DNA of 64,000 nucleotides from a virus, in IMG/VR virus record IMGVR_UViG_3300042359_000621; one strand, written 5' to 3'. Numbering within the stretch: the first letter of the stretch is position 1; the number at the start of each line of letters is the position of its first letter. Shown here in pieces: positions 35,071 through 64,000 of this stretch. A program made the position numbers and the translations under genes. The notes under the pieces are model-generated. The model was not told the origin of the DNA, made no database searches, and saw only the letters and a program-made list of their open reading frames with translations.

Positions 35071-35095
35071 AAGACCTCTAATTCAACTTAAAACT

Positions 35096-35125: not shown

Positions 35126-35129
35126 CTGT

Positions 35130-35887: not shown

Positions 35888-35917
35888 TTCCGTTGTTATA
35901 AGAATATCAACACATAG

Positions 35918-36532: not shown

Positions 36533-36562
36533 ACCCTGAAGGGCTTTGAGTGGTAGAAACCT

Positions 36563-37255: not shown

Positions 37256-37284
37256 TGTGACTATTTCCTTAATTAATGGTTACG

Positions 37285-37334
37285 GCTCCTGGGTGCGACG
37301 AACACCGCGAGGAGCATTTCTATTATTAATTATA
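37285..37334 (-). promoter_or_regulatory. TGATATAAT promoter plus conserved leader hairpin (copy A)
   Basis: -10 at 37334..37329. Outer stem 37285-90/37310-15, inner 37292-95/37303-06. Covaries with copy B. Confidence 0.55.
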
Positions 37335-37502
37335 TCAATATTTTATTAGTTTGTCTGTTAATTAAGCCACGTCAAACAAACTTAATTGCTTAAATTCCGG
37401 TTGTTTTAACTCCATGATTTCTAACTCTGTTTCTGAATATTCCCTGGGTTGGGAGATGCGATCGTGTGATACAATATAATCAGATTATTGGGTAACAACA
37501 CA

Positions 37503-38635: not shown

Positions 38636-38809
38636 ACTTCAAAACAATCACCGTGAATAATTTGATTAAGCATAATAATATTAATTATTTAGTCTATCAA
38701 TATTATAATACAAACCCAATATCTTCACCAATAAAAATAACCCAACAATCAATAAGATTCCTGGGTTAGTATCGTCCAATTTCAATCAGTGTGCATCATT
38801 ATTATAACA

Positions 38810-40628: not shown

Positions 40629-40943
40629 TTATTGTACTAACGGGTCGTTGTCCATGGATTCAAGTGCGACTAATTCCGCGTCTAATTTTTCTTGATATTC
40701 CTTCTCAAAGGCATCAATGAAAATAGGGACAAAAGCCTCAATAGCATCGTGCAGCCCTGGATATTTAGCCAACGGAATCCTAATGATTCCGCTTTTATTC
40801 GTTGGGATTGTATGACCCGTTTCATCGTCAACCATGACGATTACATAACAGGCTTCAATATATTCCCTATTAACAATTCCAGTTTGAGGATTTGCAGTTT
40901 CAAACTGTTGACGATAGACAATTCTATGCTCTTGGTAACTCAT
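40629..40943 (-). CDS. hypothetical protein (fibre-adjacent)
   Basis: ORF 2 nt after fibre gene. Confidence 0.5.
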   Translation of the reverse strand: MSYQEHRIVYRQQFETANPQTGIVNREYIEACYVIVMVDDETGHTIPTNKSGIIRIPLAKYPGLHDAIEAFVPIFIDAFEKEYQEKLDAELVALESMDNDPLVQ

Positions 40944-48153: not shown

Positions 48154-48157
48154 AATA

Positions 48158-48877
48158 TCAAGTGATTAATTTTAAAGATTGAATGGCATCATCCCAGAAA
48201 AACTGACCAGGTGTAAATTCTCCCTGTTGCTCAACAAACCGTCTGCCTCTCCATTCTACATAATCAATAAATCCCAAGTTCTCCCCAATATTAAAAACAT
48301 TGAGTTGACCAATTAGCTCCTGAGGTGCGGTATATTGCCCTGTCATCTCCAAAGTTTCCCCTCCTCTAATCCGACAGCAGGAATTAGAGCAATCAATCAC
48401 AACTCGCTCCCCTACTTGCCCAAAATTAAGAGGGACACCTCTATTTAAAACTTGAGACACAATCATTCCTGAAGGAACGGTAACTATCAACTCACACATT
48501 ACCCTGGGGATAGGGGCGTTAAATTCTATGGTTAAATTAATACTATCAGGAACGGTATTAGTCGCAAAATAGACAGTAGTATTTTGTAAATAGAATCTTT
48601 GCCCAGTCAATCTATCTGGGTTTGTGGCTTGAATAAAATTGTTTATCCCGACCCGTAGAACAGCTAAAAAAGGCAGGTTTATTTTATAAAGGGTAAAGAC
48701 GGCATCAGGGGTTGTTAGCTCTGTTGGGGAAGGGTTAACGCCAGGGTATTTGTGAAATGTTTTAGTTTGAAATAAAGGAGCTAATGTCTGATTTCCTTGT
48801 GCAGACAAAATAGGAGCCGATAAATTAAATGGACTCAGGATTGTTGCGGGTAAGTTAGAATTAGAGAGCGTGAACAT
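48158..48877 (-). CDS. structural-block protein
   Basis: ORF 4 nt upstream of the 814-aa gene. Confidence 0.5.
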   Translation of the reverse strand: MFTLSNSNLPATILSPFNLSAPILSAQGNQTLAPLFQTKTFHKYPGVNPSPTELTTPDAVFTLYKINLPFLAVLRVGINNFIQATNPDRLTGQRFYLQNTTVYFATNTVPDSINLTIEFNAPIPRVMCELIVTVPSGMIVSQVLNRGVPLNFGQVGERVVIDCSNSCCRIRGGETLEMTGQYTAPQELIGQLNVFNIGENLGFIDYVEWRGRRFVEQQGEFTPGQFFWDDAIQSLKLIT

Positions 48878-48908
48878 AAAAAATTAATTTAACTACTAAT
48901 ATTATCCC

Positions 48909-49325
48909 GTGAATTATCGCCAAGAATTAAAACAGACCATAGAATTGTTTGTCCCTCAAGTTGAACAAGCATTTCTCAAAGCATTCTTTCTAAAAGACCT
49001 CGATTTTGGGCGGGATTTAATGGTGGGGGAGCGGACGGGTGCGATAGATTGGTATACCTCTGACCTGGGATCTCTTGTAGGAAACGTGATGATTTCGATG
49101 GGTTGTAGCTCCCGATTAAATGCCGAGATAGAAAAAGCAACCGAGGCGATTTATGCCAGACACGGGATATTTTCCATCAACGAGGAGGTTGTTAGAGCCA
49201 TAGAGCTTTCAACCGCCAAGGTACAGCTAAAAGGGGAAGTTAACGCTACAACAGTGCAACAAACTTCTTCTCGGCTCTGGGTAGCAATTTCCACGTTTCA
49301 AATTGACTGTTTTATTGGGTTGTGA
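48909..49325 (+). CDS. lone rightward ORF between tail block and terL (GTG start)
   Basis: Only a long open frame supports it; non-ATG start. Confidence 0.35.
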   Translation: MNYRQELKQTIELFVPQVEQAFLKAFFLKDLDFGRDLMVGERTGAIDWYTSDLGSLVGNVMISMGCSSRLNAEIEKATEAIYARHGIFSINEEVVRAIELSTAKVQLKGEVNATTVQQTSSRLWVAISTFQIDCFIGL

Positions 49326-49326
49326 T

Positions 49327-50931
49327 CTATTTTTTCATCCAATCAGCCAGTCCTTCTCGGTAAGTTTTAGCAAACGCATAGCATACCGCATCGGCTAAGT
49401 TAGGCGATCGCCCGATAATACTCTTAATATCATCTTTTTTGGTAATCATTATTGTTTTCCCAGACTCCCACCACCGGAATGCACAGAGTTCTTCTTTTAA
49501 TTGATCATCGGGAGGTAAACAGATCGGGATTTGATTCTTGGGGTCTAATAAGTCTCGCAGATTCCAGTACCAATAAGTCCGCATATTAGCAAAAGTCAAG
49601 AGTCCGCTTTTGTCTTTCAAATACTCGCCGTTTCCATCCTTCGCGGCTTCACTTCCTTTCAAGGGAATAACGTGCATTTTCATCCCTCGACAGGTATCGT
49701 GAACCGCAGCACCCACCCCAATTACGTCAATTTGTACCTTTACCCCAATGTTCGCCATACAGGAGGCAATCTGCTGTGCGACAATATTGCTGTCTGGGGT
49801 CTGGCTTCCATCAAATTCCCTGAGTCTATCAAGCCAGTTGTCCCATCGCAGAGCCAACACTGTCTTATCTATCCCACCCCTCGCCACATCCACACCAATA
49901 TGGGACATTTTTAAGGTTTGAGGATAGTCAACCCATCGTTGCATCGCCAAAGTGACCCAATCCCCAGGAATAACTTGATAGGGGTCTGATTCTGGCTCGA
50001 TGGTCATGTCGCCATAGAGAAGCTGCGATCGCAAAGGTTCAGGGAGAGATTGCAGCACCCCTCTATATCCTGAATCTTTCAGGAAAGGATTGTCGTCTAG
50101 TGTCGCTCGAATAAATGTGCGGGATCGGGGTTCTAAGTCTTCGTCTCCAATTCTGATCTTTTTAGGCTTGGGATAATAGAGTTTTCCCTCAACCTTTACA
50201 GGATCAAGAGAAGAAACCTCGTGGATTTCCTTGCCAATCGTGAGATAAAAGCTATCAACATCTACTTCTTGGTCTTTCCCGTTTACCCCCACAAACCAGC
50301 GCAACTCACCTGGTTCGGCAAGGTGTCTTCCCGTCTGAGATTCATATTTTGGATCAAGCCAGGGAGCCAGATAACCAATAATCCATCGCCCACTTACTTG
50401 ACTGGGAGGATTAAACGTAAAGATTACTCGGCATTTTTGATGGGGATCGGGACTTCTGCACCAACCCGTTAAAAAGAGGAATTGCTCAAGGGAGAATTCT
50501 GTCACCTCGTCTACTGCCTTGAGATCGTGTTCAATCCCTCGCCAGTTTTCAATATCACTTTCATGTTGCGCCGCGCCAAACTTTAGAGTTCTCCCTCCGG
50601 GTATTTTCCTCCACAGCTTTTCGTTACTATTGTAAGTAGCCCCACTCCCCCGTAATAATAGCCGTGATTTTTCAATAATATCTAGCAGCCGAGGATACTC
50701 TCGCCGGAAAACAATTGATTTCCGGTGTTGTGTCACCGCCATAATCTGAATGATTGCGGTTTTCCCCCCTCCAGCACTCCCCCCAAACCCAATAATGTCA
50801 GCATGGGAAGACAAAGCCATTCTTTGTGGTTCACTTTTGGGTTCCCAAGGGTTCCAGTTTGCAATACTCTGTCCAGTAAATCCTAATTTGTCTAATACAG
50901 AAGGGTAGCCACTATGTCTTTGTTTTGTCAC
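49327..50931 (-). CDS. terL: terminase large subunit
   Basis: Walker A GFGGSAGGGKT, Walker B ..LKAVDEVTEF.., C-terminal nuclease-type region; divergent from portal. Confidence 0.85.
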   Translation of the reverse strand: MTKQRHSGYPSVLDKLGFTGQSIANWNPWEPKSEPQRMALSSHADIIGFGGSAGGGKTAIIQIMAVTQHRKSIVFRREYPRLLDIIEKSRLLLRGSGATYNSNEKLWRKIPGGRTLKFGAAQHESDIENWRGIEHDLKAVDEVTEFSLEQFLFLTGWCRSPDPHQKCRVIFTFNPPSQVSGRWIIGYLAPWLDPKYESQTGRHLAEPGELRWFVGVNGKDQEVDVDSFYLTIGKEIHEVSSLDPVKVEGKLYYPKPKKIRIGDEDLEPRSRTFIRATLDDNPFLKDSGYRGVLQSLPEPLRSQLLYGDMTIEPESDPYQVIPGDWVTLAMQRWVDYPQTLKMSHIGVDVARGGIDKTVLALRWDNWLDRLREFDGSQTPDSNIVAQQIASCMANIGVKVQIDVIGVGAAVHDTCRGMKMHVIPLKGSEAAKDGNGEYLKDKSGLLTFANMRTYWYWNLRDLLDPKNQIPICLPPDDQLKEELCAFRWWESGKTIMITKKDDIKSIIGRSPNLADAVCYAFAKTYREGLADWMKK

Positions 50932-51023
50932 CTATCTTCCCCGTATAACCAATTGTGATTTTAATTTTTATCCTTCCCTTTGAAGATGGTCTAGTTGCTC
51001 TATTTAGAACAATTCTTTCCATA

Positions 51024-51683
51024 TTAAAACTCCGTAGGAACACTTACCCCAAAATTAATTAACCAGTTATATAACCTAGACCTATCCTTAACAAAATCAT
51101 CGTCCAATGGTTCGTTTTCTAAGTTTTCATCCCCACCTGTTGTTTCCCCTTTGGCTAACTCCTCCGCCTGTTTTAGTCTATCATTTGCTTGTTTACATAG
51201 CTTTGCCAAATCATCTAAAGAGTAATGATTTTCAAGTCCTCCCACCTTAAATATTAAGATAGCATCCGCTATAATATCAAGGGCTAAATCTCCCGTTGTA
51301 ATAAGCTCCTGGGGAAGTAATTTAGAGTCTGTCCCATCTTCGGGATACTTGTAACCTAATAATTGTTCTAGTAAACTCAATCCTGGGATTAGCTGCTCTC
51401 GATAGGTGATTGGCTCCGTTGCTATAAAAAAATGATGGCGTGATTCTTGAGTTAATTGGTCAGGATCAAACTCAAAAAAATGAGCTATTTTTAAATAATG
51501 ATAACGAAACCGAGGGAAAAGGTAATCATCCATTTTCTCTGGGTAAATGTGAAGCCCTGCAATGGACTTCTTTAAATCCAAAAGATATGCAGATAGTTTC
51601 CTAGACTCTCTAATAGCCACAGGGAAAACCAAGATAAAATTCCCAGTCTGATAATTTAATCGGAAGTGCAACATTAAAGCCAC
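51024..51683 (-). CDS. hypothetical protein upstream of terL
   Basis: ORF in array; a TerS role is possible by position only. Confidence 0.45.
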   Translation of the reverse strand: MALMLHFRLNYQTGNFILVFPVAIRESRKLSAYLLDLKKSIAGLHIYPEKMDDYLFPRFRYHYLKIAHFFEFDPDQLTQESRHHFFIATEPITYREQLIPGLSLLEQLLGYKYPEDGTDSKLLPQELITTGDLALDIIADAILIFKVGGLENHYSLDDLAKLCKQANDRLKQAEELAKGETTGGDENLENEPLDDDFVKDRSRLYNWLINFGVSVPTEF

Positions 51684-52315
51684 TCCTCCTGACTATCTTG
51701 CCAATTAACTAACTTGATTCTATTGCCAAATAATGGCTCGAATTCGCATTGTTTTAATTCCAAATATCGCCACCTTCGATTTAGGGATTCCCCTTCCTTG
51801 AAGACAAGATGGGCATCTAATTTTTCTATGGGTTCCTGTAGCTCTTGGGTCGCTTCACGGTAAATCACCTGCGTCCTAATTTTTACCGTTTGCCCAGAAA
51901 GATTGGGAGAAGCATAGATTTTCCCGCCTTCTTCAACCACGATTTGAGATTGACCTGTAATCCTATCTACTAATTCTACTGTTAGAGGCGATTTATTATC
52001 GGCATTTGGGAAGTAATAAGCGATCGCCTCGCTATCTGGTTTAGGGATTTTAATATCATATTTTGAAGCATTGCCAGAGAGGGATAATTGCCCACTATTC
52101 CCCGATAACCTCGCCTCTAAGAGCGTAAAGTCCAGAAATTCAGGGGTAACAGCCCATCGTTTTTTCCTGCACAATGCCGCGACTAATGGATGACCAGCTA
52201 ACTTTAACTCAATTTTATCTTCGTCAACCTTGACAGAAGAAGGCAACACCAAATCAGGAGGGGTGTACAACTCGCCTCCTGACTCCTTTACCCAAGCTCG
52301 GCAAACTTTACGCAT
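51674..52315 (-). CDS. hypothetical protein
   Basis: Start at MRKVC (52315) gives an ATGCGTAA overlap with the upstream stop. Confidence 0.45.
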   Translation of the reverse strand: MRKVCRAWVKESGGELYTPPDLVLPSSVKVDEDKIELKLAGHPLVAALCRKKRWAVTPEFLDFTLLEARLSGNSGQLSLSGNASKYDIKIPKPDSEAIAYYFPNADNKSPLTVELVDRITGQSQIVVEEGGKIYASPNLSGQTVKIRTQVIYREATQELQEPIEKLDAHLVFKEGESLNRRWRYLELKQCEFEPLFGNRIKLVNWQDSQEEWL

Positions 52316-52964
52316 TAACAGAAGCGGAGATCGCCTCCATGCTTGTAGGGTGATTTGCGAGGGTTTCAGTGCCTGTCCGTGAAACAGTAGGAGGGTTTCC
52401 CCCGTCATAAAAAATGGCTTGTGAAACCCCTGCAATATTCCGCCCACCAGAGGGGAGAATGAAGTACGTTTTTATCTCTCCTATTTTTCGCATTTTTGCG
52501 GTTCCCGATGCAGCAGTGGTTTGGGCGACAACAATATTACTAGGCGTGGTAGACCCACCTACATCGTAAGTAATTGTTACCCCAGGCAAGTCAGAAGTAA
52601 GGGTTAAAACATTGGTCGCTGCCGTTCCTGAAACCAAAGCAGATGCAGAAGGAACTCCATTAATCTCCTCTAAAAGTCTTGTTGCAATTGTGGTCGCAGT
52701 ATCACCTGACCTTTGGGTATGGGAGACAATAGCCGAGTTACCCCCGGCAGTGATTCCTATTAGGTAGTCATCCCCTGTACTCCCTGCTGTGATGGTCATG
52801 GTATTCACTTGAGACACCGCGCCACCAAAATCTGCCCAGGCTTCTAACACATCCTTTACCACCCCCCCTTCAGTAATTTGTGTCCGTACCCTTTTAAAAG
52901 GGATTGTTACCGTCAGGTCGGGTTGGGATGCAGGATAACTAATTGAGCCAATTGAAGAAGTCAT
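52308..52964 (-). CDS. hypothetical T/S/G/A-rich protein
   Basis: ATG at 52964 preferred over TTG at 52991. Confidence 0.45.
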   Translation of the reverse strand: MTSSIGSISYPASQPDLTVTIPFKRVRTQITEGGVVKDVLEAWADFGGAVSQVNTMTITAGSTGDDYLIGITAGGNSAIVSHTQRSGDTATTIATRLLEEINGVPSASALVSGTAATNVLTLTSDLPGVTITYDVGGSTTPSNIVVAQTTAASGTAKMRKIGEIKTYFILPSGGRNIAGVSQAIFYDGGNPPTVSRTGTETLANHPTSMEAISASVNA

Positions 52965-53062
52965 TTGTTTTGAGTAATAACTTATTAACAATATTATAAT
53001 TATAATTATGCCTTAAACTCAAAGATAATTCCGCAAAAAAATACCAATAACTTTATATAAAA

Positions 53063-55051
53063 ATGACCGCCCAATCATCCGAGACAACAAAAAAAGAAAC
53101 CACCACAGAGATTGTGAATCGTTATAGAGAAGACTCTCGTGTCATGATGCAAGCGTTAGCGGAGAGTGCCGACGCAAGTTCGATGCGAAATCCTCTCCCT
53201 GTAACGGGAAGAATCCAGCCTTTCTCTCAACAGCAAGTAGAAAACTGTTTAGCAGACGCGATCTTAAAACGAATAGCGTGGAGCCTCCCATCTTCGTCAA
53301 CTCAAAAGATGTGGCAGTTATCCTTGGGAGATGATTTTTCTAGTAAGACGGGTTCTAAATTAGTCCGAGATTATTATGCCTATCACGAAAGATTGAAAAC
53401 CATATCACAATTTAGAAAAGCATTGCAGTTCTCTCGCTCTCATGGTGGGACAGTTATTATTCTCAAGATTAACGATGGAAGACATTATTCCGAACCTGTT
53501 GATGAAGGCAAGATTAAATCAATCTCTGGGTTAATCGTTCGTCACCGATGGCAAGTTGCTCCTTCGGTGAGAACGGCTGCTAGTATATTTGACCTTGATG
53601 ACATTGAACATTATGAAATCCTAACAATTGACCAACAAATAAAACAAAAATTACTATTTAACGGAACAAATTCCAAGCAGGATGATCGCCTGATTCATCG
53701 GTCAAGAATCCTCCGGTTTAATGGGGCATTAATGCCTGATGATTGGATGATTTCCTATAACAATGGATGGGGATTGAGTGTCTTTGACGAGGTTTGGAAA
53801 TATTATAAAAACTATACAAATGGACTCAATGCAGTAGGCGAATTAATTAAAACCCAATCAGTTCTACAGCATTCTTTTGAAGGACTGCGGGAACTGATGA
53901 TGGCATCTGATGAAGAAAGTATCGCAGCTATTAAGCAAACCATGAAATCAATCCGACTAATGTTTGATCTATATGGCATGGTTCTCCACGACTCCCGTGA
54001 ACAATTCAACTGGAATGCCCGCCCCGTCGTCGGGATGGATTCACTCGTGCAAGTACAGAAGGATGGGGTAACAGGAGCCTCTGGGATGCCTCACACGATA
54101 GTTTGGGGAGAAAGCCCTGGGGGTTTGGGGCGTGATGGCAAGGAGACCCAAATCAACTATGCTAACTCGGTGGCAGAGTACCAAGGAGAGAGCTTAGATC
54201 CTAGCGCAGCTATTCTTGATCGTTATATCTTCTTGGCTAAAGACGGCCCCACAAAAGGCAAAATCCCCGACAACTACCAGAGGCAGTACCCTTCTATCTT
54301 GAGGATGACCATCGAGGATCTCCGCTCTGGACGCTCATCTGATATTCAGGCATTGGCTTCAGGTATTCAAGCCGGATTCATCACGACAGATGAAGCTCGG
54401 ACAGTGCCTTCTAACTCCGGTTGGTGGCCAGAGCTTAACCTTGATCAAAAAGCATGGGAAGAAGCCAGGAAAAAAGCAGAAGAACAAGCAAACTTCCTTG
54501 GTGGTTTTGATATGGGAGCATTAGGAGGCGAGGAAGCTGCCCCACCCACTGAAGAACCCGTCGAAGAAGAATCTATAACTCAAATGGACAGTGCTGTTTA
54601 CACCCCAATAAAGCGGGTTCTTAATTGGCACGGGCTATCAATTGGGGTCACTCACGACAAAGGGGATCTTCGCTATAACAAAACGATGAAGGTAGGGTAT
54701 GGGCATATTAGACGCAGCTATGGACACGCGGAGGACGCAAAAGCAATCGACGTTTATATCAAAAATCCAAACTCACCTAGTCTCTGGAAGGTTCGGCAAC
54801 TCAACACAACAACAGGGGAGATTGACGAAACAAAGTATTTCTTGGGTTTTGATTCCCCCAAAGAAGTGCGCGATTGCTATTACTATCATGCCGGATTAGA
54901 TCGTTTTGGAGGAGTGGAGAAGTGCGATCCTACGGAATTAAACCAATACCGCCAAGATGCAGAAGAATTGGAGGGAGTTAATGAAGTTTATCAAAATAAG
55001 ATATTAACAGATGTAGCAAATAGAATCAATCAACAAACTCAATTAGATTAA
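53063..55051 (+). CDS. portal protein with extra C-terminal domain
   Basis: Size and position divergent from terL; ..SHGGTVIILKINDG.. portal-like core. C-terminal ~150 aa ..GYGHIRRSYG..IDVYI..TGEIDETKYFLGF.. Confidence 0.6.
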   Translation: MTAQSSETTKKETTTEIVNRYREDSRVMMQALAESADASSMRNPLPVTGRIQPFSQQQVENCLADAILKRIAWSLPSSSTQKMWQLSLGDDFSSKTGSKLVRDYYAYHERLKTISQFRKALQFSRSHGGTVIILKINDGRHYSEPVDEGKIKSISGLIVRHRWQVAPSVRTAASIFDLDDIEHYEILTIDQQIKQKLLFNGTNSKQDDRLIHRSRILRFNGALMPDDWMISYNNGWGLSVFDEVWKYYKNYTNGLNAVGELIKTQSVLQHSFEGLRELMMASDEESIAAIKQTMKSIRLMFDLYGMVLHDSREQFNWNARPVVGMDSLVQVQKDGVTGASGMPHTIVWGESPGGLGRDGKETQINYANSVAEYQGESLDPSAAILDRYIFLAKDGPTKGKIPDNYQRQYPSILRMTIEDLRSGRSSDIQALASGIQAGFITTDEARTVPSNSGWWPELNLDQKAWEEARKKAEEQANFLGGFDMGALGGEEAAPPTEEPVEEESITQMDSAVYTPIKRVLNWHGLSIGVTHDKGDLRYNKTMKVGYGHIRRSYGHAEDAKAIDVYIKNPNSPSLWKVRQLNTTTGEIDETKYFLGFDSPKEVRDCYYYHAGLDRFGGVEKCDPTELNQYRQDAEELEGVNEVYQNKILTDVANRINQQTQLD

Positions 55052-55076
55052 TTTTAAATTAATTGGTTTTTGAATG

Positions 55077-55120
55077 CAACTTAGTCAACCCATTTTATTT
55101 CACTAGGGTTGGCTAAGTTG
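55077..55120 (+). terminator. 15-bp stem hairpin after portal (no T-run)
   Basis: CAACTTAGTCAACCC / GGGTTGGCTAAGTTG. Confidence 0.4.
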
Positions 55121-55395
55121 TCTAAACTGTTACATCAAATCTTTGTCGGTTCCTGATTTACGGGCTGCGTAAATCTATGTATAGGTTAAGGTAGTTTGGC
55201 AACAATTGGCACTTCGGACAGTAAGGACACCCCAGACCCACTGCAACGGTCTGTCTCCCGCCTATTCACCAAGAAATCAATACAATAAAAAAGGTGTGAT
55301 TTTCTTATATAGAAATTATTTTGTAAAGTCCTGTTGATCTATAAGAATTTAACCTTAAAATTATAGTGATAACTTCTGATCAGAAGGGTTTTATC

Positions 55396-55788
55396 ATGCC
55401 AATTCCTGTTAGTTTTTTCAATCTTACAAGAGCCGGAAAGGTTTACGCCTTCAAGCCCGAAGACATCTCGTTTGGGGACGACGACACTCTTGAGGTTAAA
55501 TTAAATCAAGGGGGAGATATAGCGGTCATCCCTCTTGTAAAAAAATCCGTGACATTAACAATTCAGGGTGCTGTTGACACTGATCTTGATACGTTTGAAA
55601 CCGAGAGAACCCAAAATGTCCAAAACTTAATTGACAATCAGCCGGTTGGCGCAAACATGGCTTTTGCAAACTATATTATTTACAGTGCTTACTTGCGAAA
55701 AGTAACCCCCACTGCCCCAATTACCGTGTCAGGGAAGACCTTGTTTGACACGATTGAACTAGAGTTTGCCTCTCGCGTTTACGTTTAA
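55396..55788 (+). CDS. hypothetical head-region protein
   Basis: ATG at 55396 with AAGG upstream. Confidence 0.5.
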   Translation: MPIPVSFFNLTRAGKVYAFKPEDISFGDDDTLEVKLNQGGDIAVIPLVKKSVTLTIQGAVDTDLDTFETERTQNVQNLIDNQPVGANMAFANYIIYSAYLRKVTPTAPITVSGKTLFDTIELEFASRVYV

Positions 55789-55850
55789 ATTTATACTGCC
55801 TAAGCCAATCAAGGTTTAGGTAGTAGCCCCTAAAATCTATGTATAAAAAG

Positions 55851-55967
55851 ATGACATTTATACTTTATAGACAAAGATTAAGATTTGATGCTCCGCCAAC
55901 AGAAATCCAAGCGAAGTTAGCGATCGCCAAAGTACATCTCAATATTGGCAAAAGTGAACTTAATTAA
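55851..55967 (+). pseudogene. 38-codon orphan stub of the paralog-family N-terminus
   Basis: MTFILYRQRLRFDAPPTEIQAKLAIAKV.. aligns with ..LLRFDAAPTEVQMKLAIAQV.. of the three full genes, then diverges and stops. Confidence 0.55.
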
Positions 55968-56016
55968 GCAAAAACAAAGTACAATAGACTCATCGCATTA
56001 AAAAGGAAAATCAATT

Positions 56017-56241
56017 ATGAAAGCTAAAAAAACTGCTGTTGAAGGACAGAAGAAAATTAAAACCGTTCCCCCTGCTGTTGTAGATGAAGATGAGGATGTT
56101 TTAGGGGAAGGGGAGACATTGCAGGAATTTGACAAGAGAATGGAGAAAAAATATCCGAAAAGAAGTTATGACGATTTGACAGAAGAAGAAAAACGCGAAC
56201 GTGCCAAACGTTTTGTAGCTCAAGGGCCGGAAGACTGGTAA
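56017..56241 (+). CDS. small charged protein
   Basis: AGGAAAA RBS upstream; K/E/D-rich. Confidence 0.5.
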   Translation: MKAKKTAVEGQKKIKTVPPAVVDEDEDVLGEGETLQEFDKRMEKKYPKRSYDDLTEEEKRERAKRFVAQGPEDW

Positions 56242-56283
56242 GTTTGCAATCCGCACCCGTACAGAAAGATTTAACTCAAAACA

Positions 56284-57372
56284 ATGGTCACCACCTTAAA
56301 CCGTCAAAATCTCCTTCGCTTTGATGCTGTTCCTACCAAGGAACAGATGCGGTTGGCGATCGCTCAAACACTATCCCTCCCCTCAATTTATAATTCTCCA
56401 GTTATCATACTGGACTTTGAAGTGGGTGATGATGGTAAAATTACGGGGCGGTTTAAGGATGCTGATCGTCCTCGTGTGTTTAGCTTCGAGATTTTGGACG
56501 ATATCCGTTTTAGCCCTTTTAAGTCTGGGCGACTGGACAATGAGGAGGAATGGGAGGATTTTTCCCTTGGTTATAGCTTTCGCTTTGATACACCCGGAGG
56601 GGCTAAAAAAAAGCCGCAGTGCGTGAAACCCACGTCTTATAATTGTGGTAAATCTTGCATAAATATTAAGAAAAATTGCAGGTGCAATCCCGATGATGCT
56701 CAGTCAAAAGATAGAATAGATAAATTAAAGTCTCTGGCGAAGGATTTTAAAAAGGGGCAAGAAGGGGGAGGAAAGCAGAAGGAATCAAAAGTTTCTGAAT
56801 CAAAGGACAAGAAACTTTCTTACTCTAATTTTGAGAGTGACTTTGAAGACCTTTATTTTGAGGAGAAAAGGAAACAAGAGTTAAAAGGTGTTGTAGCAAT
56901 TAAACGCCGACAGATGTTAGATATTGCCGAAGGAAAGTACAATGTTCCCCGTGAACAGTTAGAGGATTATTTCGAGAAGTTAAAAGATAATAAAAAAATA
57001 TTCTCAGTAATAGAGAAAGGGGAAGAATTATTATCTTGGGTTGGAGGACAGACACCCAAAAAGCAGGGAAAACAACCTAAAGCCAAATCTTCTAAAACAA
57101 AAGACTTAGTTGCAGGACAAAAAGCAATCAAGGAAAAACAGATATCTTATGCTAAATTCGAGAAAGACTTTAAAGAATTCTATAACGAAGAAAAAAGAAA
57201 GCAGGAACTACAGGGGGTTGTAGCAATTAAACGCAATAAGTTGTTAGATGATTATGCTAAAAAAAATGGGATTTCTCGACAGCAATTAGATAATCATTTT
57301 GAAAGTCTTAAAACCAATGGTAAGATATTCTCTGTCAAAGAGAAAGGGGAGGAGTTGTTTCAGTGGAACTAG
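56284..57372 (+). CDS. family member 1: shared N-terminal module plus two ~77-aa tandem repeats
   Basis: N-terminus LLRFDAVPTKEQMRLAIAQTLSLPSIYNSPVIILDFEVG..; Cys motif C..SYNCGKSCINIKKNC. Confidence 0.65.
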   Translation: MVTTLNRQNLLRFDAVPTKEQMRLAIAQTLSLPSIYNSPVIILDFEVGDDGKITGRFKDADRPRVFSFEILDDIRFSPFKSGRLDNEEEWEDFSLGYSFRFDTPGGAKKKPQCVKPTSYNCGKSCINIKKNCRCNPDDAQSKDRIDKLKSLAKDFKKGQEGGGKQKESKVSESKDKKLSYSNFESDFEDLYFEEKRKQELKGVVAIKRRQMLDIAEGKYNVPREQLEDYFEKLKDNKKIFSVIEKGEELLSWVGGQTPKKQGKQPKAKSSKTKDLVAGQKAIKEKQISYAKFEKDFKEFYNEEKRKQELQGVVAIKRNKLLDDYAKKNGISRQQLDNHFESLKTNGKIFSVKEKGEELFQWN

Positions 57373-57440
57373 GTTAGTATTTTAAAAGCAAGCTAAAACA
57401 GATCCAAGTAAAAAAATTAGAATTAATTAAATTTTAAAAT

Positions 57441-59672
57441 ATGGTCACAATTTCAAGTTATCAAAATCTCCTTCGCTTTGATGCTGCTCCTACGGAAGTG
57501 CAGATGAAACTTGGTATTTCTCAAGTTTTGTCGATGCCATTTGCCTACAACTCTCCGGTTATCGTTCTGGACTTTGAAGTAGGCAATAAAAACATCATCA
57601 AGGGACGGTTTAAGGATGCCATTAGATCCCGTGTTTTTGAGTTTGAGATTGGGGATTCTATCACGTTCAAGCCGTTCACCTGGAGGCGAACGGATAGCGA
57701 CGTTGACCCGATGGCGTGGGAAGACTTCTCTAAAGGGTATTGCTACCGATTCGATGCAGTTAAGACCGTCAGAAAGGAAAAACCTAAGTGTGGCAATACC
57801 TCCTATAACTGCGGCAAAGCCTGCATTGGCTTAAACAAGAATTGCAAATCAGATCCCCCCGATAAACCGTCCCAGGAGAAAGTCGATAAACTCAGAGCCG
57901 CAGCAGGGGAGTTTAAAGCTGTTCAGGGCGATCCAACCAAGAAGCAAGAGGATAATAAGTTAACGCCAAAACCACAGGAAGTTAAGGCGGTTAAGACCAA
58001 AACTGCTAAGGGCGCGATCGCTAAATCAGAAACACCACCAAAAACACCCAAGACAACTAGACCCAAGGTAGGGACAAAGCAGTATGACGAATGGCTAGAA
58101 ACCGAATCTCAAAAACTCAAGGGTAAAGATGGGGAATATGTAATTAAAACCCGTTCGGGGGATGAGACGGTCAAAGGAACCGTTTATGGCAATGGATTGG
58201 GGATTAATCCAAATAAAGGGTCTTTGTACAACACTCACAGCGTTACGCACATCGGCAGTGGCAGATCGTTGGGTGATTTTGATGATGAAGTTCAGGCTAA
58301 AAAGGCATTAGTTGAGTTGAACCGATCCGGCGTTAATTGGAGCGAACAAGACTTAACAAAAATTCCAGGGATAGAGAAGAAAATAGTCAAAGTTAAGGGC
58401 TTGATAGATAATGCCAAAGACTCGGACTTAAGGGTTAAACGGGATGCTAAAAGGAAGGTGATAGAGGAAAAACGAGCTAAAGACGATGCCAAAATTGAGG
58501 CTGGTATGCAAAGGTTTAGAGAGGAAGAAGCTAAGAAAAAACAACAGGCTGAAATAGACAGAAAAATACAAGAGGAAAAAAATAAGGTAGAGCGTGAAAA
58601 GCAAGTTGAGGCTATGAAAAAGATGGCAGAAGATCAAGCAAAAGTTTATCAAGATTATGAGATCAATAGAACAAATCAACTGATCGGAGAATTGAAATCA
58701 TCCTTTGATGTTAAGTCATTGGAGTCTGAAGTTAGCGTGCTGGAATCGAGGCTAAAGACGGAATCATCTCCCAAGGCAAAAAAAGAGTTAAACCAACGAT
58801 TAAATAATGCAAACATCAAACTAAAGGAGGTTAAAACATTTTTATCTCAGGACAAACTTGAAACCTATCCCGCTTTTTTGAAATCCAGAGTAAAGGGAAT
58901 GGCTAATACTGTTGGGATTGAAAAAACCAGGGAGATTTTACAGGAGCAAATTGACAATTACAAGAAACAAGTAAAGGAGGAGCCAAAGCAAAAAACAATA
59001 AAAGTTCAAGGGGAGCGATCGCAAGAACAAGAATCCCCTCTAATTCCGAAAGAAGAAATAGTTAAAGAGGCTCCTAAGCGAATTGGGGATGGAACCCAAA
59101 AAAGCTCCCCTCTTAATGCTCAGGAATACCACAAAATGATGGTTGAGAGAGGGAATAATATCTCAATAGAAGAAGCTGAGGAAACTGTTAAATCAATCGT
59201 GTCGTGGAAACTTAGAAACGATGCCATAAGAGGAGATCAGCAACAAGGAAAGCCCAATAAAGATGCAGATAACATTGATAACTTTATCAAAAACTCTACA
59301 CCTTATGAGGGAATGGTCGCTAGAGGGCTTAAGTTTTTCAGTAAAGAGGAAGCAGCAAACTTTATCAAAGGGGATGAGAATGGGATATTAAATAACCAGT
59401 CTGCTCATGCTTCATGGACTTCTGATTTTGATCAAGCTAAGAGGTTTGCTGATGTAGAGTCAAAAACAAATCCCTACTGGAAGGAATATTCTGAAAATCT
59501 TTATCCTGTGATTGTCCTTGCCAAAAATAAAACAGGTGTTCCAGCCCAAAATACAGGAGATGGATTACATAGTAACGAAGCCGAGGTTATTGTTTCAAAG
59601 AATACAAGGCATAAAGTTGTTAGGGTGATAGATAGAGATGGAATTATTTTAGTGGAAACCGAAGAAGTGTAA
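57441..59672 (+). CDS. family member 2: shared N-terminal module, K/E-rich coiled-coil middle, C-terminal ADP-ribosyltransferase
   Basis: R-S-E triad: ..GMVARG (R628), ..HASWTSD (S658-S661), ..SNEAEVIV (E713/E715). Confidence 0.7.
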   Translation: MVTISSYQNLLRFDAAPTEVQMKLGISQVLSMPFAYNSPVIVLDFEVGNKNIIKGRFKDAIRSRVFEFEIGDSITFKPFTWRRTDSDVDPMAWEDFSKGYCYRFDAVKTVRKEKPKCGNTSYNCGKACIGLNKNCKSDPPDKPSQEKVDKLRAAAGEFKAVQGDPTKKQEDNKLTPKPQEVKAVKTKTAKGAIAKSETPPKTPKTTRPKVGTKQYDEWLETESQKLKGKDGEYVIKTRSGDETVKGTVYGNGLGINPNKGSLYNTHSVTHIGSGRSLGDFDDEVQAKKALVELNRSGVNWSEQDLTKIPGIEKKIVKVKGLIDNAKDSDLRVKRDAKRKVIEEKRAKDDAKIEAGMQRFREEEAKKKQQAEIDRKIQEEKNKVEREKQVEAMKKMAEDQAKVYQDYEINRTNQLIGELKSSFDVKSLESEVSVLESRLKTESSPKAKKELNQRLNNANIKLKEVKTFLSQDKLETYPAFLKSRVKGMANTVGIEKTREILQEQIDNYKKQVKEEPKQKTIKVQGERSQEQESPLIPKEEIVKEAPKRIGDGTQKSSPLNAQEYHKMMVERGNNISIEEAEETVKSIVSWKLRNDAIRGDQQQGKPNKDADNIDNFIKNSTPYEGMVARGLKFFSKEEAANFIKGDENGILNNQSAHASWTSDFDQAKRFADVESKTNPYWKEYSENLYPVIVLAKNKTGVPAQNTGDGLHSNEAEVIVSKNTRHKVVRVIDRDGIILVETEEV

Positions 59673-59721
59673 CAAGTTAAAAAAATAGTGAATTTATCCT
59701 CTGTTTTGCCCAAAATAAAAA

Positions 59722-59774
59722 TGTTATAATTAATAATAACAAACGCCTCTCGCGGTGCGCTAACACCCAGAGGC
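59722..59774 (+). promoter_or_regulatory. TGTTATAAT promoter plus conserved leader hairpin (copy B)
   Basis: -10 at 59725-30. Outer stem 59745-50/59769-74, inner 59754-57/59764-67. Confidence 0.55.
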
Positions 59775-59806
59775 AGTAAACCTAAAACTTAAAACAGAGG
59801 TTCACC

Positions 59807-60415
59807 ATGTCGGATATTGTAAGATCAATCCGTGCCGAATTGGAACTAGGCAACAGAAGTATTGACTGCTATCTATTCCCAGATGGGGAGAAACGGATCG
59901 GAATTGGTGGCGCGAGTATTGCCATCGGACGGAGTAAAGAGTATTTGGGTCGCTTATTGAAAAGCGAATCAGAGGATCTCGGAAAACTCAAAATCATGGG
60001 ATTCTGTGGAAAAATTGTCGAAACGGAGTTTCTGTTTGGGAGAGGATCTACTCGCTCCAAAACTATTTCTTTGGCTGATTTTGATATTCTGATGATGTTT
60101 TTTGTTGACTTGCGGATGAAAAAAGAAAAGAAAAATCCTGAAGGTATTGTTAGGGATAAGTTATTAGAACAGTCAGGGGGATCTAAAGAGGTTTCTACAT
60201 TGGCAGGAAAGATAGACATATTAACCCCATCGCAAATAATAGAAGTAAAACAGGTTAATGGATGGAAAGGGGCTTTAGGACAAGTTTTAGTCTATGGATA
60301 TTATTACCCGTCTCATCAGAAAAGGATTCATTTGTTTGGAGAGTGCCATAGTAGCTATCTCGATATTATCCAAAAACATTGTCAAGAATTTGATGTTATT
60401 GTTACATGGGAATAA
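59807..60415 (+). CDS. Bro-N/KilA-like N-terminus plus PD-(D/E)XK nuclease (module B1)
   Basis: ..GKIDILTPSQIIEVKQVNGWKGALGQ.. (D..ExK); paralog of 36563..37255. Confidence 0.6.
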   Translation: MSDIVRSIRAELELGNRSIDCYLFPDGEKRIGIGGASIAIGRSKEYLGRLLKSESEDLGKLKIMGFCGKIVETEFLFGRGSTRSKTISLADFDILMMFFVDLRMKKEKKNPEGIVRDKLLEQSGGSKEVSTLAGKIDILTPSQIIEVKQVNGWKGALGQVLVYGYYYPSHQKRIHLFGECHSSYLDIIQKHCQEFDVIVTWE

Positions 60416-60467
60416 GATTTACCAGGTCGGCTAAACGGAGTCTAAAGCCCTCAAAGAGCTACAGGGT

Positions 60468-60806
60468 ATGGGTTTCACAGGTCGCACAAAAGACACTGAG
60501 GTTAAGATAGCCAGAGGTGCGACACGAAGCAAGACCATCTCATCCAGAGACTTTACGAAGTTAATCACATGGGATGCGGTAGTCAATAATAATCAAGATT
60601 CCATTATTTTGTTGGCTGCGTTTGCCGAGACGGGGTTGGATGACATATTGGAAAAAGTCTTCACACGGCAATCGTTGGACTTTCTGTTAGAAAAAATAGT
60701 CCACTATAGCAAATGGACTATGGAAGACTTACAAGAAGCCCTCGATGCAAATAACGATGATTGGAGAGTGATCAGGGAACAAGAGCAGTTTTTATTAGAG
60801 GGCTAA
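60468..60806 (+). CDS. nuclease-module partner B2
   Basis: N-terminus repeats the central MGFTG..T.S..DF domain of B1; C-terminus ..WRVIREQEQFLLEG matches A2 ..WRVIEEQEAFILS. Confidence 0.55.
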   Translation: MGFTGRTKDTEVKIARGATRSKTISSRDFTKLITWDAVVNNNQDSIILLAAFAETGLDDILEKVFTRQSLDFLLEKIVHYSKWTMEDLQEALDANNDDWRVIREQEQFLLEG

Positions 60807-60836
60807 ACATCAAATTTGTTTAACAGGTTAGTATGG

Positions 60837-60885
60837 GATATATGCTACTCTTAACCCCATGCTAACTCTAAAATTCGTTGCTAAC
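60837..60885 (+). repeat. copy 1 of ~49-bp direct repeat (5' end of the downstream morphogenesis gene)
   Basis: GATATATGCTACTCTTAACCCCATGCTAACTCTAAAATTCGTTGCTAAC versus 63809-63857 (about 90% identity); leaves a 14-codon mini-ORF at 60859..60903. Confidence 0.85.
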
Positions 60886-60938
60886 GGCTCCAAAGATTGG
60901 TAAACTAAGAAGATTAGCAAATTAAATTAATTCATATT

Positions 60939-63746
60939 ATGATTACAACTCCCGTCATCAAAGCAAACCAATCTAACATGGCTCCCACCGAAGTTCAGAT
61001 GAAGTTAGCGATCGCGCAAGTCCTATCCCTTCCATTTGCCTACAACTCCCCCGTAATTGTCGTTGATTTTGAGGCAGGTAACGGGAATGTGATCAAGGGT
61101 AGATTTAAGGATGCCTCCCGACCCCGTATATTTGAATTTAAGATTGATGACTCCATAAGTTTTAAGTCATTTACCTGGAAAAGAATAGACAGCGCGGATA
61201 TCGATCCAGTGGTGTGGGAAGAATTTTCTAAAGGGTACACCTATCGGTATGACGCAGTTAAAACCAAGAGGAAGGAAAAACCTAAGTGTGGCAATACCTC
61301 CTACAATTGTGGCAAAGCCTGTATTGGGTTGAATAAAAACTGCAAATCAGATATACCGGATAAACCCTCCCAAGAAAAAGTCGATAAACTCAGAGCCGCA
61401 GCAGGGAAATTTAAAGCCGTTCAGGATGATCCAATCAAGAAGCAAGAAGATAATAAATTAACGCCAAAACCACCGGAAACAAAACCGACACTAGCGAACG
61501 AAGATAAAATGCGCGATACACTAAAGAAAGCTATCGCGGAAAATGAGTTGAATAAAAGTTTAGCAGAAACAGCTTATCAAAAATACCACCAGTATCAAAA
61601 CGGACTAAAAAATGAAGCAGAAGGTTTATCATCTCGGTCTATCGCTAGTTTATATCAAATCCCCCACGCCACTGCTGTAGCTAGAATTAACGGACTTAGA
61701 GAAGCTGTTGGACTAGGAGGGTCTAATGCTGTATCTGTTGACAAAGAATTAGGGGGAAGAATTAACGACCTTTTAAATAATGGGAAACAAATTAAAATTA
61801 ATTCGTCAGGCGGTCAACTAAAAGATCGGAAAAAAGAACCAAGTCAAACAACAATTAATGCTGACAAAAAATGGTCTGACTTTTTAGAATCTAAAAATGT
61901 TACAGAGAAAGGACTTAGAAAACTAGACCCTGAGACTAGAAAGAAAATTACAGAAGAATTTGAAAATACTCGGATTGAAGAAAGGGCTCAGGAGTCAAGC
62001 AAAAGGAAAGGTCTATCACTACCTGAAGACCCCAAACCATCCCCAAATTCAACAGGGGTTAAGGGTGCGGGGGGTAAGACACTTGACCTAAAAGATTTGT
62101 GGCAACAGACAGCCGACGCTGCTTATTCTAAAAATAAAGATGGGGTCTCAAAAAATCTTGAGCAATGGAAAGAAGTTGTTAAAAAACTAGAGTCAGGGGA
62201 GGGAATTTCTAAAGATGTTAACTTAAACGAATACGAAAAGTTGATGGATAATTTAGAAAGAAAATTAGTCCTTAACCCAAAAGATCCGTCTAATGTCGAG
62301 TTTAAAAAAATTACTGGGTCTATTTATAGAACTCTTGACAAGGCTGTAAGATACGATCCGTTAACTCAGGAAGATTTAGAAAAAGCTCACCCCAACTTTA
62401 GACCCATCATGCAACGGATGAAAAAAACCGTTACCAAGGTAAACGAATTATCCGGTAAAAAACAGCAATTACAAAAGGAATTAGACACATTAAAACACAG
62501 ACAATCTTATAACGAGCTTATAGTCAAATCTAATTCAAGGCAATTTCGTGAAACGGCGATTGACAATAATTATAATGAGCTTAGGCTCCTTACGATGCGA
62601 AACCCGAATGACATGATAGAAGTCAGAAATCCAGTATCTAATCTCCCAGAAAGGACAGTATCCATCCCGACAAGGATTAATGAGATCAACAAAGATATTA
62701 GAGATTTGGCAGACGATAAAAAGGCTGTGGAGTCTTCAGATCGTGCTAAGGGCGAAATAGCTAAATTACAGACCAAAATTAAAGATGCTGAAAGTCGGGC
62801 AACTTCCTTAGATGGTGAAATTAAGGCGTTAAGAGAATCGAGAGGAACGGGATCTGTTTTATCAGAACCTAAGTCAGCCCCTATTCCTGCTGTAGCACAA
62901 AGAGCGATCGCTAAAACCAAGACTGACAAACCCCCTGTTAAATCGGTTGATCAACAATACAAGGATATTATTGCCAGTTCTAAAGATCCAAAAGGAACAG
63001 AGGAGGCTTTGTCATCGGCACTCAGAGGCGGTATAGGTGACTTCGAGAGAAAGAATTATAACGAGTATTTAACTGCGATAGCTTCTGGGACAGTCCCAAA
63101 AGGAATGGGAGACTATTATCAAAAGCAAATTGATAAATATAAGCCCGTTATTGATGCCGAAAACTTCATAAACGAGAGACGGCAAAAGGCAAAAGCAGGT
63201 GATTATGAAACAGAATCAGAAGCAGGGGTTTATATTCTTGATAAACTAAAACAAAAAGGCTACAAAGAGCATGAATATTATGATAGTCCAGACTATAAAA
63301 TGGATTATGACAAATTAAAAACCGTAATGAAGTCTATGGAATTACCTCCCCCTCTGTCTGGTAATATTCCTAGTAAGGAATTAAAACAGACACTAACTCA
63401 GGGGGATAAATTGCTAGTTAAAGAAAGCACTTATTCTATGATGGGAGGAAGTTCCCCTGCGGGTTATCGAATTGTTGACGGTGGCGAAGTTCTAAAAGTT
63501 AATGTCAAGAATGTTAAAACAAGAGTCCAGGGCGAGTATATGGGGAAACCTTATAAAAATGAGCCATCCCTTGCCCTTGATACAGTTACCCACGTCATCC
63601 GAGATGGTAAACGTTACAAAGTAGATGATTCTGATAGTTCCCCTAACGACTTAAAGCCTGAAGTTACTCAACCCCAGAAGGCAGTAAAACAAAAGTCAAT
63701 AAAACAAAAGGCGATAAAAGTTCAAGAGGTGCGATCGCAAGGTTAG
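60939..63746 (+). CDS. family member 3: shared N-terminal module plus 750-aa unrelated C-terminal region
   Basis: N-terminal ~175 aa is co-linear with member 2, with DNA stretches near-identical (e.g. AAACCTAAGTGTGGCAATACCTCCTA). Confidence 0.65.
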   Translation: MITTPVIKANQSNMAPTEVQMKLAIAQVLSLPFAYNSPVIVVDFEAGNGNVIKGRFKDASRPRIFEFKIDDSISFKSFTWKRIDSADIDPVVWEEFSKGYTYRYDAVKTKRKEKPKCGNTSYNCGKACIGLNKNCKSDIPDKPSQEKVDKLRAAAGKFKAVQDDPIKKQEDNKLTPKPPETKPTLANEDKMRDTLKKAIAENELNKSLAETAYQKYHQYQNGLKNEAEGLSSRSIASLYQIPHATAVARINGLREAVGLGGSNAVSVDKELGGRINDLLNNGKQIKINSSGGQLKDRKKEPSQTTINADKKWSDFLESKNVTEKGLRKLDPETRKKITEEFENTRIEERAQESSKRKGLSLPEDPKPSPNSTGVKGAGGKTLDLKDLWQQTADAAYSKNKDGVSKNLEQWKEVVKKLESGEGISKDVNLNEYEKLMDNLERKLVLNPKDPSNVEFKKITGSIYRTLDKAVRYDPLTQEDLEKAHPNFRPIMQRMKKTVTKVNELSGKKQQLQKELDTLKHRQSYNELIVKSNSRQFRETAIDNNYNELRLLTMRNPNDMIEVRNPVSNLPERTVSIPTRINEINKDIRDLADDKKAVESSDRAKGEIAKLQTKIKDAESRATSLDGEIKALRESRGTGSVLSEPKSAPIPAVAQRAIAKTKTDKPPVKSVDQQYKDIIASSKDPKGTEEALSSALRGGIGDFERKNYNEYLTAIASGTVPKGMGDYYQKQIDKYKPVIDAENFINERRQKAKAGDYETESEAGVYILDKLKQKGYKEHEYYDSPDYKMDYDKLKTVMKSMELPPPLSGNIPSKELKQTLTQGDKLLVKESTYSMMGGSSPAGYRIVDGGEVLKVNVKNVKTRVQGEYMGKPYKNEPSLALDTVTHVIRDGKRYKVDDSDSSPNDLKPEVTQPQKAVKQKSIKQKAIKVQEVRSQG

Positions 63747-63808
63747 TAGATGTTTCGGACGTTTCCATGTGTTAAAGCCTCCTTTTTTGTTTCGTTATAC
63801 TGAAGTCA

Positions 63809-63857
63809 GATATATTCTACTCTTAACCCCATGCTATCCCTAAAATTCGTTGCCAAC
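63809..63857 (+). repeat. copy 2 of the ~49-bp direct repeat
   Basis: See 60837-60885. Confidence 0.85.
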
Positions 63858-64000
63858 CAAGCCCAAAATTACCTCAATAAATTAATCAGAAAGTTTCAGA
63901 ACCTCACACCTGAACTGCATAAAGTCGGGCAGTTTATGGTGGCATCAACCGACGAGAACTTTCAAAAGGAACAGAGTCCTTACGGGGAGAAATGGGAACA
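63831..64000 (+). CDS. virion morphogenesis protein (Mu gpG-like), 5' partial
   Basis: ..STDENFQKEQSPYGEKWE.. resembles the F..E.sP.G..W motif of that family; runs off the window. Confidence 0.45.
   Translation, partial: MLSLKFVANQAQNYLNKLIRKFQNLTPELHKVGQFMVASTDENFQKEQSPYGEKWE

Follow-up and report, generated by a model that had tools for sequence, protein, structure and literature searches.

The coupling of a head-associated module to a variable effector is a known principle in phages, with T4 Alt, the MuF toxins and the polyvalent proteins as examples. The capsid targeting sequence (CTS) of T4 is a peptide of about 10 residues that is cut off by the prohead protease. Here we describe three neighbouring genes, members 1, 2 and 3 (m1, m2 and m3), in a 64,000-nucleotide stretch of viral DNA (IMG/VR record IMGVR_UViG_3300042359_000621; the whole stretch is called the window below). 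All three begin with one shared N-terminal module, the N-module, and then pass into different C-terminal regions, which we term payloads. The T4 system, with its head-packaged and injected ADP-ribosyltransferase (ART), its basic internal proteins and its N-terminal targeting element, offers one parallel; the N-terminal element here differs from the T4 CTS in being, by prediction, a folded domain of about 140 amino acids (aa) followed by a helix. Since the principle itself is already known, the novelty of the locus would lie in its putative carrier module and in its gene arrays.

A second parallel is provided by MuF toxins and fusions (Jamet et al. 2017, PMC5576092; Iyer et al. 2017), in which a conserved head-module N-terminal domain precedes a variable enzymatic C-terminal domain, ARTs included, the gene is adjacent to that of the portal, and payloads are diversified by recombination. 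The genes described here differ in that the N-module is not MuF by sequence or predicted fold, in forming arrays of one to three plus five to seven genes per genome rather than a single gene, and in having no evident immunity gene; their hosts are filamentous cyanobacteria, and one of the phages, Planktothrix phage PaV-LD, is an isolated lytic phage. Polyvalent proteins (PMC5512222) have an overlapping domain repertoire (ART, InPase, LPD1, SNF2-type helicase, GNAT and peptidase/LRAT) and a portal–terminase context; some members of the present family are giant proteins with two or three Cys-motif units or two or three ART domains, whereas m2 has one recognised effector domain. The difference is that here there is mostly one payload type per polypeptide, spread over tandem paralogues with a common leader module, and neither the N-module nor its cysteine motif is described in that paper. 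True homologues are ORF044–048 of phage CL131 (Sulcius et al. 2018, PMC6293099), which carry the N-module, the Cys motif or both and, like one of the arrays described below (array B), are encoded directly upstream of the tape measure gene. No enzymatic payload is recognisable in them; the paper presents them simply as hypothetical structural proteins and does not draw a connection to the ART-bearing genes of PaV-LD. The literature that we searched contains no account of the N-module with its Cys4 knuckle, of the pair of multi-gene arrays or of linker-mediated cassette exchange in cyanophages.

We consider it probable that m1, m2 and m3 belong to a multigene family of virion-associated, host-delivered effectors in phages of filamentous cyanobacteria, in which exchangeable payloads are carried by the N-module. 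The open reading frames (ORFs) of 362, 743 and 935 aa given in the initial annotation of the window were identical in our ORF check. The N-module common to all three comprises approximately 165–180 aa including a four-Cys motif, after which the proteins diverge. Identity across the module is 53.8% over 171 aa between m1 and m2 (E 2e-55), 75% over 191 aa between m2 and m3, and 43% between m1 and m3 (E 3e-45). The motif, C-x(5-7)-C-G-x-x-C-I-x-x-x-K-x-C, lies at aa 113–134 in m1 and at 117–135 in m2 and m3, and the latter two also have PSQEKVDKLRAAAG..KKQEDNKLTPKP in common. At the DNA level, positions 60981–61478 (m3) are 77% identical to 57486–57980 (m2), with 87–93% identity in the last ~200 nt and only 30–60% beyond 57978. 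Thus the common module, the four-Cys motif, the extra segment of m2 and m3 and the abrupt end of their DNA homology, all of which had been proposed from the sequence at the outset, were borne out. The count of three genes was correct in that all three are real, but it missed what looks like the relic of a fourth member and a far larger family.

The window is closely related to PaV-LD. Window positions 46900–56518 are 96.7% identical in nucleotide sequence to PaV-LD 29087–38723, while positions 56518–63812 can be aligned in patches only, with similarity returning at 63812 (88%). On the + strand, the portal gene with its C-terminal InPase domain is followed by one small conserved gene and then by m1, m2 and m3.

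The N-module matched no described family, as the initial annotation had supposed. A Pfam scan of 130 full-length homologues yielded no family that covers the N-module itself, and nothing consistent was returned for 44 diverse N-modules by Pfam at a lenient threshold (E≤1) or by a sequence-profile search of the PDB. Modelling with AlphaFold2 from an alignment of the 44 sequences gave a mean predicted local distance difference test (pLDDT) score of 84.3 and a predicted template modelling (pTM) score of 0.76, with all five models at 82–84; an earlier model from 7 sequences (pLDDT 64) was poor and was left out of the fold search. The predicted elements are a helix at 19–30, four strands at 40–78 and helices at 90–98 and 142–162, and in the model the Cys motif (121–137) folds as a small three-stranded unit, a Cys4 knuckle that probably binds Zn. 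A Foldseek search of the PDB with the pLDDT-84 model gave no match (best E 0.22), and against BFVD at E≤1e-3 it recovered only PaV-LD ORF061R, 065R, 078R and 079R, one CL131 protein and two Nodularia phage proteins, with no protein described as MuF among the matches listed. A weak similarity to the Rho OB-fold (E 0.064), which hinted at nucleic-acid binding, was not significant and was rejected. The N-module is catalogued, uncharacterised, as phrog_16619 (‘minor head protein’) and phrog_33618. By the Foldseek, Pfam and PDB profile tests run, it is not a MuF, scaffold or decoration domain.

Could the N-module nonetheless be a very divergent MuF/SPP1 gp7 domain, and the genes ordinary MuF–effector fusions? 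They occupy the post-portal slot usual for MuF, with one small gene between the portal gene and m1, in a window that has no MuF domain, and phrog_16619 is labelled ‘minor head protein’. We regard this explanation as highly improbable, because PF04233 (MuF/SPP1 gp7) has no match in m1–m3, in the 130 full-length homologues or in the 44 N-modules at E≤1, because no protein described as MuF is among the BFVD matches listed, and because some phages encode a MuF protein in addition to N-module proteins. This coexistence means that the N-module does not simply replace MuF. A jackhmmer search seeded with the MuF region of CL131 also found no match in the window. On one short viral contig (L034), a MuF-like ORF (4301–4975) lies directly upstream of an N-module gene (5466–5705).

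Among the payloads, that of m2 can be identified. We gathered 72 copies of the m2 C-terminal domain from relatives, cut these to 20 diverse copies and aligned them. R93, G94, S123, S126 and E180 are invariant in 20 of 20, and the resulting profile matches the Vis NAD+-arginine ADP-ribosyltransferase in the PDB (4xzj, E 2e-13), and in this alignment the Arg, S-x-S and ExE motifs coincide. The next matches are the type VI secretion system ART effector Tre1 and XopAI. In m2 the Arg is found in VARGL (59316–59330), S-x-S in AHASWTS (59403–59423) and ExE in NEAEVIV (59574–59594). Judged from its sequence, the C-terminus of m2 is therefore an R-S-E mono-ADP-ribosyltransferase and not a MuF domain, which confirms the enzyme named in the initial annotation; NAD-dependent activity on a target would be expected of it. 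While the domain aligns with Vis and conserves all three motifs of the C3/VIP2/Vis-type R-S-E ARTs, it represents a divergent subfamily, of which single Pfam models catch about half of the copies (ART 9/20, ADPrib_exo_Tox 8/20). It further differs from the C3/VIP2/Vis type in often being in tandem: among relatives the domain is commonly present in two or three copies per protein, each ending V-E-x-E-E-[VI]. Counted across the 72 units, 68 end V/I-E/Q-x-E-E-[VI], either at the protein C-terminus or between tandem copies (59652–59669 in m2). This sequence could be a site for the maturation protease that frees single ARTs, or it could be just the last strand of the fold.

The payloads of m1 and m3 have no recognised effector by Pfam, PDB or NCBIfam searches. 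No significant match came from direct PDB sequence searches with m2, with its C-terminus alone, with the m1 repeats or with the C-terminal region of m3, and none came from NCBIfam. The tandem 77-aa repeats initially described for m1 are present as two repeats of 79 aa, 59% identical (56803–57039 and 57130–57366), but with a linker of ~30 aa between them they are not strictly tandem. They are possibly winged-helix-like, to judge by weak hints of DUF7774 (E 0.003) and the BirA winged helix-turn-helix (E 0.045). The statement that the three C-termini are completely unrelated held insofar as they do diverge, but the end of m3 matches the linker that precedes the ART domain of m2 (the pre-ART linker), and m2 and m3 have pieces homologous to different pieces of two PaV-LD genes. 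All three proteins are basic (isoelectric point 9.1–9.4, net charge +15 to +32), in which they resemble the virion proteins of CL131; the ART domain is acidic.

The size of the family became apparent by exhaustive profile search of 1.84 billion representatives, which was needed since a word-indexed homologue search with the N-module gave 7 close matches only. It detected 154 representative proteins at E≤1e-3, 93 of them at ≤1e-10, with lengths of 45–1975 aa. The N-module is at the N-terminus in 111 of the 154 and is occasionally internal or repeated, and the Cys motif was found in 115/152, with two or three copies in the giant proteins. Downstream of the N-module, Pfam reports InPase (9 of the 130 full-length homologues), GNAT (5), ADPrib_exo_Tox/ART (5/4), LRAT (4), ParB_N (3), DnaJ (3) and Pkinase (2), as well as DUF676/lipase, PARP, SNF2-like helicase, LPD1 and pentapeptide repeats. 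When representatives with at least 120 aa past the N-module were clustered by their C-termini at a coverage of at least 50%, 100 of them fell into 60 types. By sequence, this repertoire matches that of the phage polyvalent proteins and of MuF- or portal-fused effectors, which have been proposed to be packaged and injected (PMC5512222; PMC9503650). The enzymes among the payloads (ART, GNAT, kinase, InPase, DnaJ and helicase) depend on the cytoplasmic cofactors NAD, acetyl-CoA and ATP. A scan of a genome collection found one short Kamptonema contig from a metagenome-assembled genome (MAG) only.

In related phages the genes occur in two arrays at fixed places. PaV-LD-like contigs that span the region have the order TerL, portal, array A, Neck1, protease, major capsid protein (MCP), ORF077, array B and tape measure. 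Array A holds one to three N-module genes (150–1213 aa) and array B five to seven genes with the N-module or the Cys motif, and a GNAT domain is encoded by an array B gene of a PaV-LD-like phage; the window stops short of the expected start of array B. Backbone proteins are 83–100% identical among these contigs, and the content of the arrays varies from contig to contig. A PaV-LD-like genome has ~6–10 ART domains, unusually many for a non-myovirus. In PaV-LD itself, array A consists of ORF061R/062R and ORF065R/066R and array B of ORF078R–085R (L035, 141–8205). Each of the two ORF pairs of array A is one frameshift-split gene when compared with m2 and with metagenomic counterparts (positions 12800–13060 and 16950–17200 of the PaV-LD locus, L001; 40.8 and 45.0 kb in PaV-LD), and the frameshifts lead the deposited annotation to separate the ART domains as genes of their own, to which RefSeq gives the label ‘minor head protein’, also carried by phrog_16619. 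Intact fused counterparts exist (P0012, a metagenomic protein of 816 aa, and contig L003), which makes programmed frameshifting at the ORF061R/062R junction less likely than mutation or sequencing error. More distant phages retain a position in the virion module. On a 110-kb contig (L040) a gene for an N-module plus ART overlaps the portal stop codon; another family member (P0116) has Neck1-like genes on one side and protease/MCP genes on the other, and its phage has a separate MuF protein; a third (P0085) follows connector genes and precedes a 1397-aa protein; and a fourth (P0047) is near a portal plus MuF, beside an LPD1 protein (L045).

Comparison of near-identical genomes reveals how the payloads vary. 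Over window positions 54800–57979, contig L002 shows 99.3% identity, and over 58985–59952 it shows 99.6%, yet it has zero nucleotide similarity to positions 57980–58984 and is entirely without m3. The middle cassette of m2 has therefore been exactly replaced between two conserved linkers. Both L002 edges are also the edges of homology between m2 and m3 and those found in PaV-LD: the last 14 aa of m3 (63702–63743) match the pre-ART linker of m2 (58986–59024; 85% identity of 63701–63741 to 58985–59025 at the DNA level), at which m3 stops, without an ART domain, and this linker is 87% identical to PaV-LD 40824–40938. Among 31 proteins (334–1205 aa) with an N-module at least 78% identical to that of m2, similarity ends at m2 aa 154–183, and in 29/31 the breakpoint is at aa 171–183, right after KKQEDNKLTPKP. 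Because the edges coincide in all these comparisons, we conclude that two sites, the N-module's 3' end and the linker ahead of the ART domain, act as joints for cassette exchange by homologous recombination. Together with the 60 C-terminal types, the cassette swap between genomes that are 99.3–99.6% identical substantiates the suggestion that a constant N-module is combined with variable C-termini in related phages.

Constant N-termini, variable C-termini and cassette swapping are also the hallmark of polymorphic toxins, and the family might on this ground be taken for inter-bacterial toxins that are freed at lysis and accompanied by immunity genes, a role that has been suggested for MuF toxins in temperate phages. 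Two small genes of unknown function do follow the ART-bearing m2. We nevertheless think this explanation very unlikely: PaV-LD lacks these small genes, their pairing with ART genes is inconsistent, proteins with two or three ART units have no small genes between the units, a lysogeny module was not observed in the vicinity of the locus, and the sole match in the genome collection is the short MAG contig.

Evidence that distant members of the family are virion proteins comes from CL131, in which ORF044–048 were found in purified virions by LC-MS/MS, ORF048 with 105 unique peptides and 54.6% coverage, and ORF045 with 123 peptide-spectrum matches (PSMs) against 86 for the major capsid protein (PMC6293099). 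Our broad profile identifies a full N-module in gp045 (aa 6–134, E 9e-13) and, in gp048, one N-module (1206–1331) plus four partial copies (E 5e-40), while gp044 and gp047 have the Cys-motif part. The abundance of gp045 and gp048 in the LC-MS/MS data thus establishes that bona fide family members are virion proteins, and by analogy m1–m3 may be packaged as well.

The same data can be read in two further ways. The main rival is that the proteins are structural components of the tail, the neck or the capsid exterior, with the N-module as an anchor or oligomerisation unit, and are not injected. Array B comes after the connector genes and before the tape measure gene, the slot in which siphoviruses usually encode the tail tube and chaperone; gp045 exceeds the major capsid protein in PSMs (PMC6293099); and the original PaV-LD record labels ORF081R ‘virion structural protein’ and ORF085R ‘minor virion protein’. 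CL131 has no identified major tail protein (PMC6293099), so that gp045 (L036, 34950–36311) might belong to the tail, and if it did, the reading of the N-module as a carrier would need revision. We think a structural role unlikely, given that the payloads are enzymes dependent on the cytoplasm for NAD, acetyl-CoA and ATP, that copy number and content differ among near-identical phages in a manner unlike that of essential structural parts, and that PHROG and Pfam give no tail-protein signal; in particular, a PHROG search for tail-tube identity with CL131 gp044–048 and PaV-LD ORF080R/081R found nothing. Alternatively, the proteins might be enzymes that are not packaged and act, late or early, in the producing cell only, in the manner of T4 ModA and ModB, with the N-module in a regulatory or localising role. 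T4 provides the precedent for such unpackaged phage ARTs (PMC9503650), and the virion data cover relatives rather than m1–m3. Set against this are the position in the virion module, conserved across distant phages, the family members in CL131 virions and the basic composition of the proteins, and we judge this alternative decidedly unlikely.

Several further points weigh against delivery as effectors. The virion data come from CL131, whose virion-borne relatives have no recognisable enzyme in their sequences, and the abundance of gp045 would suit a tail component. Array B is where siphoviruses encode tail tube and chaperone genes. Of the three window genes, m2 alone has a payload that can be identified as an enzyme, and ARTs are reported in just ~3% of sipho- and podoviruses (Iyer et al. 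2022). Lastly, the N-module is unlike any known packaging, portal-binding or DNA-binding domain, so that its position and conservation are what argue for a role as carrier.

Taking these points into account, we still favour virion-associated effectors delivered to the host, and suggest that they work as follows. The genes, which lie among those of the head, would be expressed together with them, and the N-module, with a helix packed on a four-stranded sheet, the Cys4 knuckle and an amphipathic helix as its predicted parts, would bring each protein into the assembling particle. Basic, disordered linkers would join it to the payload. At infection the proteins would reach the inside of the cell together with the DNA or before it, and the payload would act in the cytoplasm; for m2 this payload is an ADP-ribosyltransferase of the arginine type, in which the R, S-x-S and ExE motifs are all intact and which presumably modifies host targets. 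Diversity arises by homologous recombination at the two joints, as the genome comparisons show, with cassettes exchanged between paralogues and between co-circulating phages. Of the polymorphic, virion-delivered effector system envisaged in the initial annotation, the constant module and variable payload are thus supported, while delivery into the host is something we infer.

The features of the locus are collected in Table 1. Promoter and terminator scans of the region gave signals at background level, and Tandem Repeats Finder gave nothing relevant at the DNA level. The InPase domain of the portal protein occupies aa 507–630 (PF18823, E 5.2e-26). InPase is a polyvalent-protein domain for which portal fusions have already been reported, and the CL131 portal is a 1393-aa fusion of portal, InPase and MuF. 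The 38-aa ORF upstream of m1 reproduces the initial ~27 aa of the N-module before it reaches a stop, is the same as PaV-LD ORF059R and, from its sequence, looks like the remnant of a deleted family member. The 202-aa and 112-aa genes between m2 and m3 are not in the PaV-LD locus, where a KilA-like gene sits; by eye, the C-terminal end of the 202-aa protein has a D...EVK motif that recalls PD-(D/E)xK nucleases. The two genes are candidates for an immunity, mobility or moron function.

Table 1. Coordinates of features in and around the m1–m3 locus (window positions).
Feature	Position	Strand	Evidence
Portal protein with C-terminal InPase (itself a portal–effector fusion)	53063..55051	+	Phage_portal_3 E 2.4e-44; phrog_146 portal
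Apparent relic of a further family member, 38 aa (MTFILYRQRLRFDAPPTEIQAKLAIAKVHLNIGKSELN)	55851..55967	+	tblastn 54–55% identity to m1/m2 residues 1–29
m1, 362 aa: N-module and two 79-aa repeats	56284..57372	+	ORF call, homology
m1 four-Cys motif (CVKPTSYNCGKSCINIKKNCRC)	56620..56685	+	
m2, 743 aa: N-module, variable middle, K/E-rich helical region, ART domain	57441..59672	+	
m2 N-module: predicted alpha/beta core, Cys4 knuckle 57789–57845, conserved helix, KKQEDNKLTPKP linker 57939–57974 (upstream joint)	57441..57980	+	AlphaFold2 pLDDT 84.3; homology edges 57978–57980
m2 exchangeable middle cassette	57981..58984	+	No nucleotide similarity to contig L002 here
Conserved pre-ART linker (KQKTIKVQGERSQ...), downstream joint	58985..59045	+	Matches m3 end and PaV-LD; L002 identity resumes here
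m2 R-S-ExE mono-ADP-ribosyltransferase domain	59046..59669	+	Profile against PDB, Pfam
202-aa gene, not a family member; variable insert between m2 and m3	59807..60415	+	phrog_32599, unknown function
112-aa gene, partial paralogue of the 202-aa gene	60468..60806	+	phrog_32599; 51% identity over 35 aa
m3, 935 aa: N-module 60939–61478 (Cys4 61287–61343) and mosaic of segments	60939..63746	+	Homology to both PaV-LD genes
Start of Neck1/tail-completion gene; conserved backbone resumes	63812..64000	+	88% nucleotide identity to PaV-LD 46433–46622 (ORF069R), synteny

A bolder proposal, which we put forward only tentatively, is that the ~140-aa alpha/beta core, the Cys4 knuckle and the helix form a self-sufficient address tag that loads proteins into tailed-phage particles and differs from MuF, from portal fusions and from the T4 CTS. 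If so, one phage would carry up to ~10 effector proteins, including 6–10 ART domains, from two arrays, and the exchange of cassettes at the conserved linkers would re-assort this arsenal in nature. The repeated Cys-motif units of the giant relatives would then delimit concatenated cargo units, and arbitrary cargo might be packaged for delivery to bloom-forming cyanobacteria. The small size of the N-module, its N-terminal place and its tolerance of widely differing C-terminal fusions make the packaging hypothesis directly testable and the module potentially useful for cargo delivery.

For the biology of these phages, our results would add a carrier module to the short list of supposed effector-loading routes (MuF, portal fusions and the T4 CTS), with the same logic spread over multi-gene arrays rather than confined to one fusion protein. 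They also point to a recombination hotspot in natural phages of toxic, bloom-forming Planktothrix, where entire payload cassettes distinguish genomes of 99% identity. Such differences are the signature of a continuing arms race, with host defence systems as a possible opponent, and the multiple ARTs, GNATs and kinases of the family are concrete candidates for counter-defence effectors. Finally, the family provides a functional hypothesis for the abundant unannotated virion proteins of CL131, PaV-LD and the Nodularia phages, which may be effectors carried into the host.

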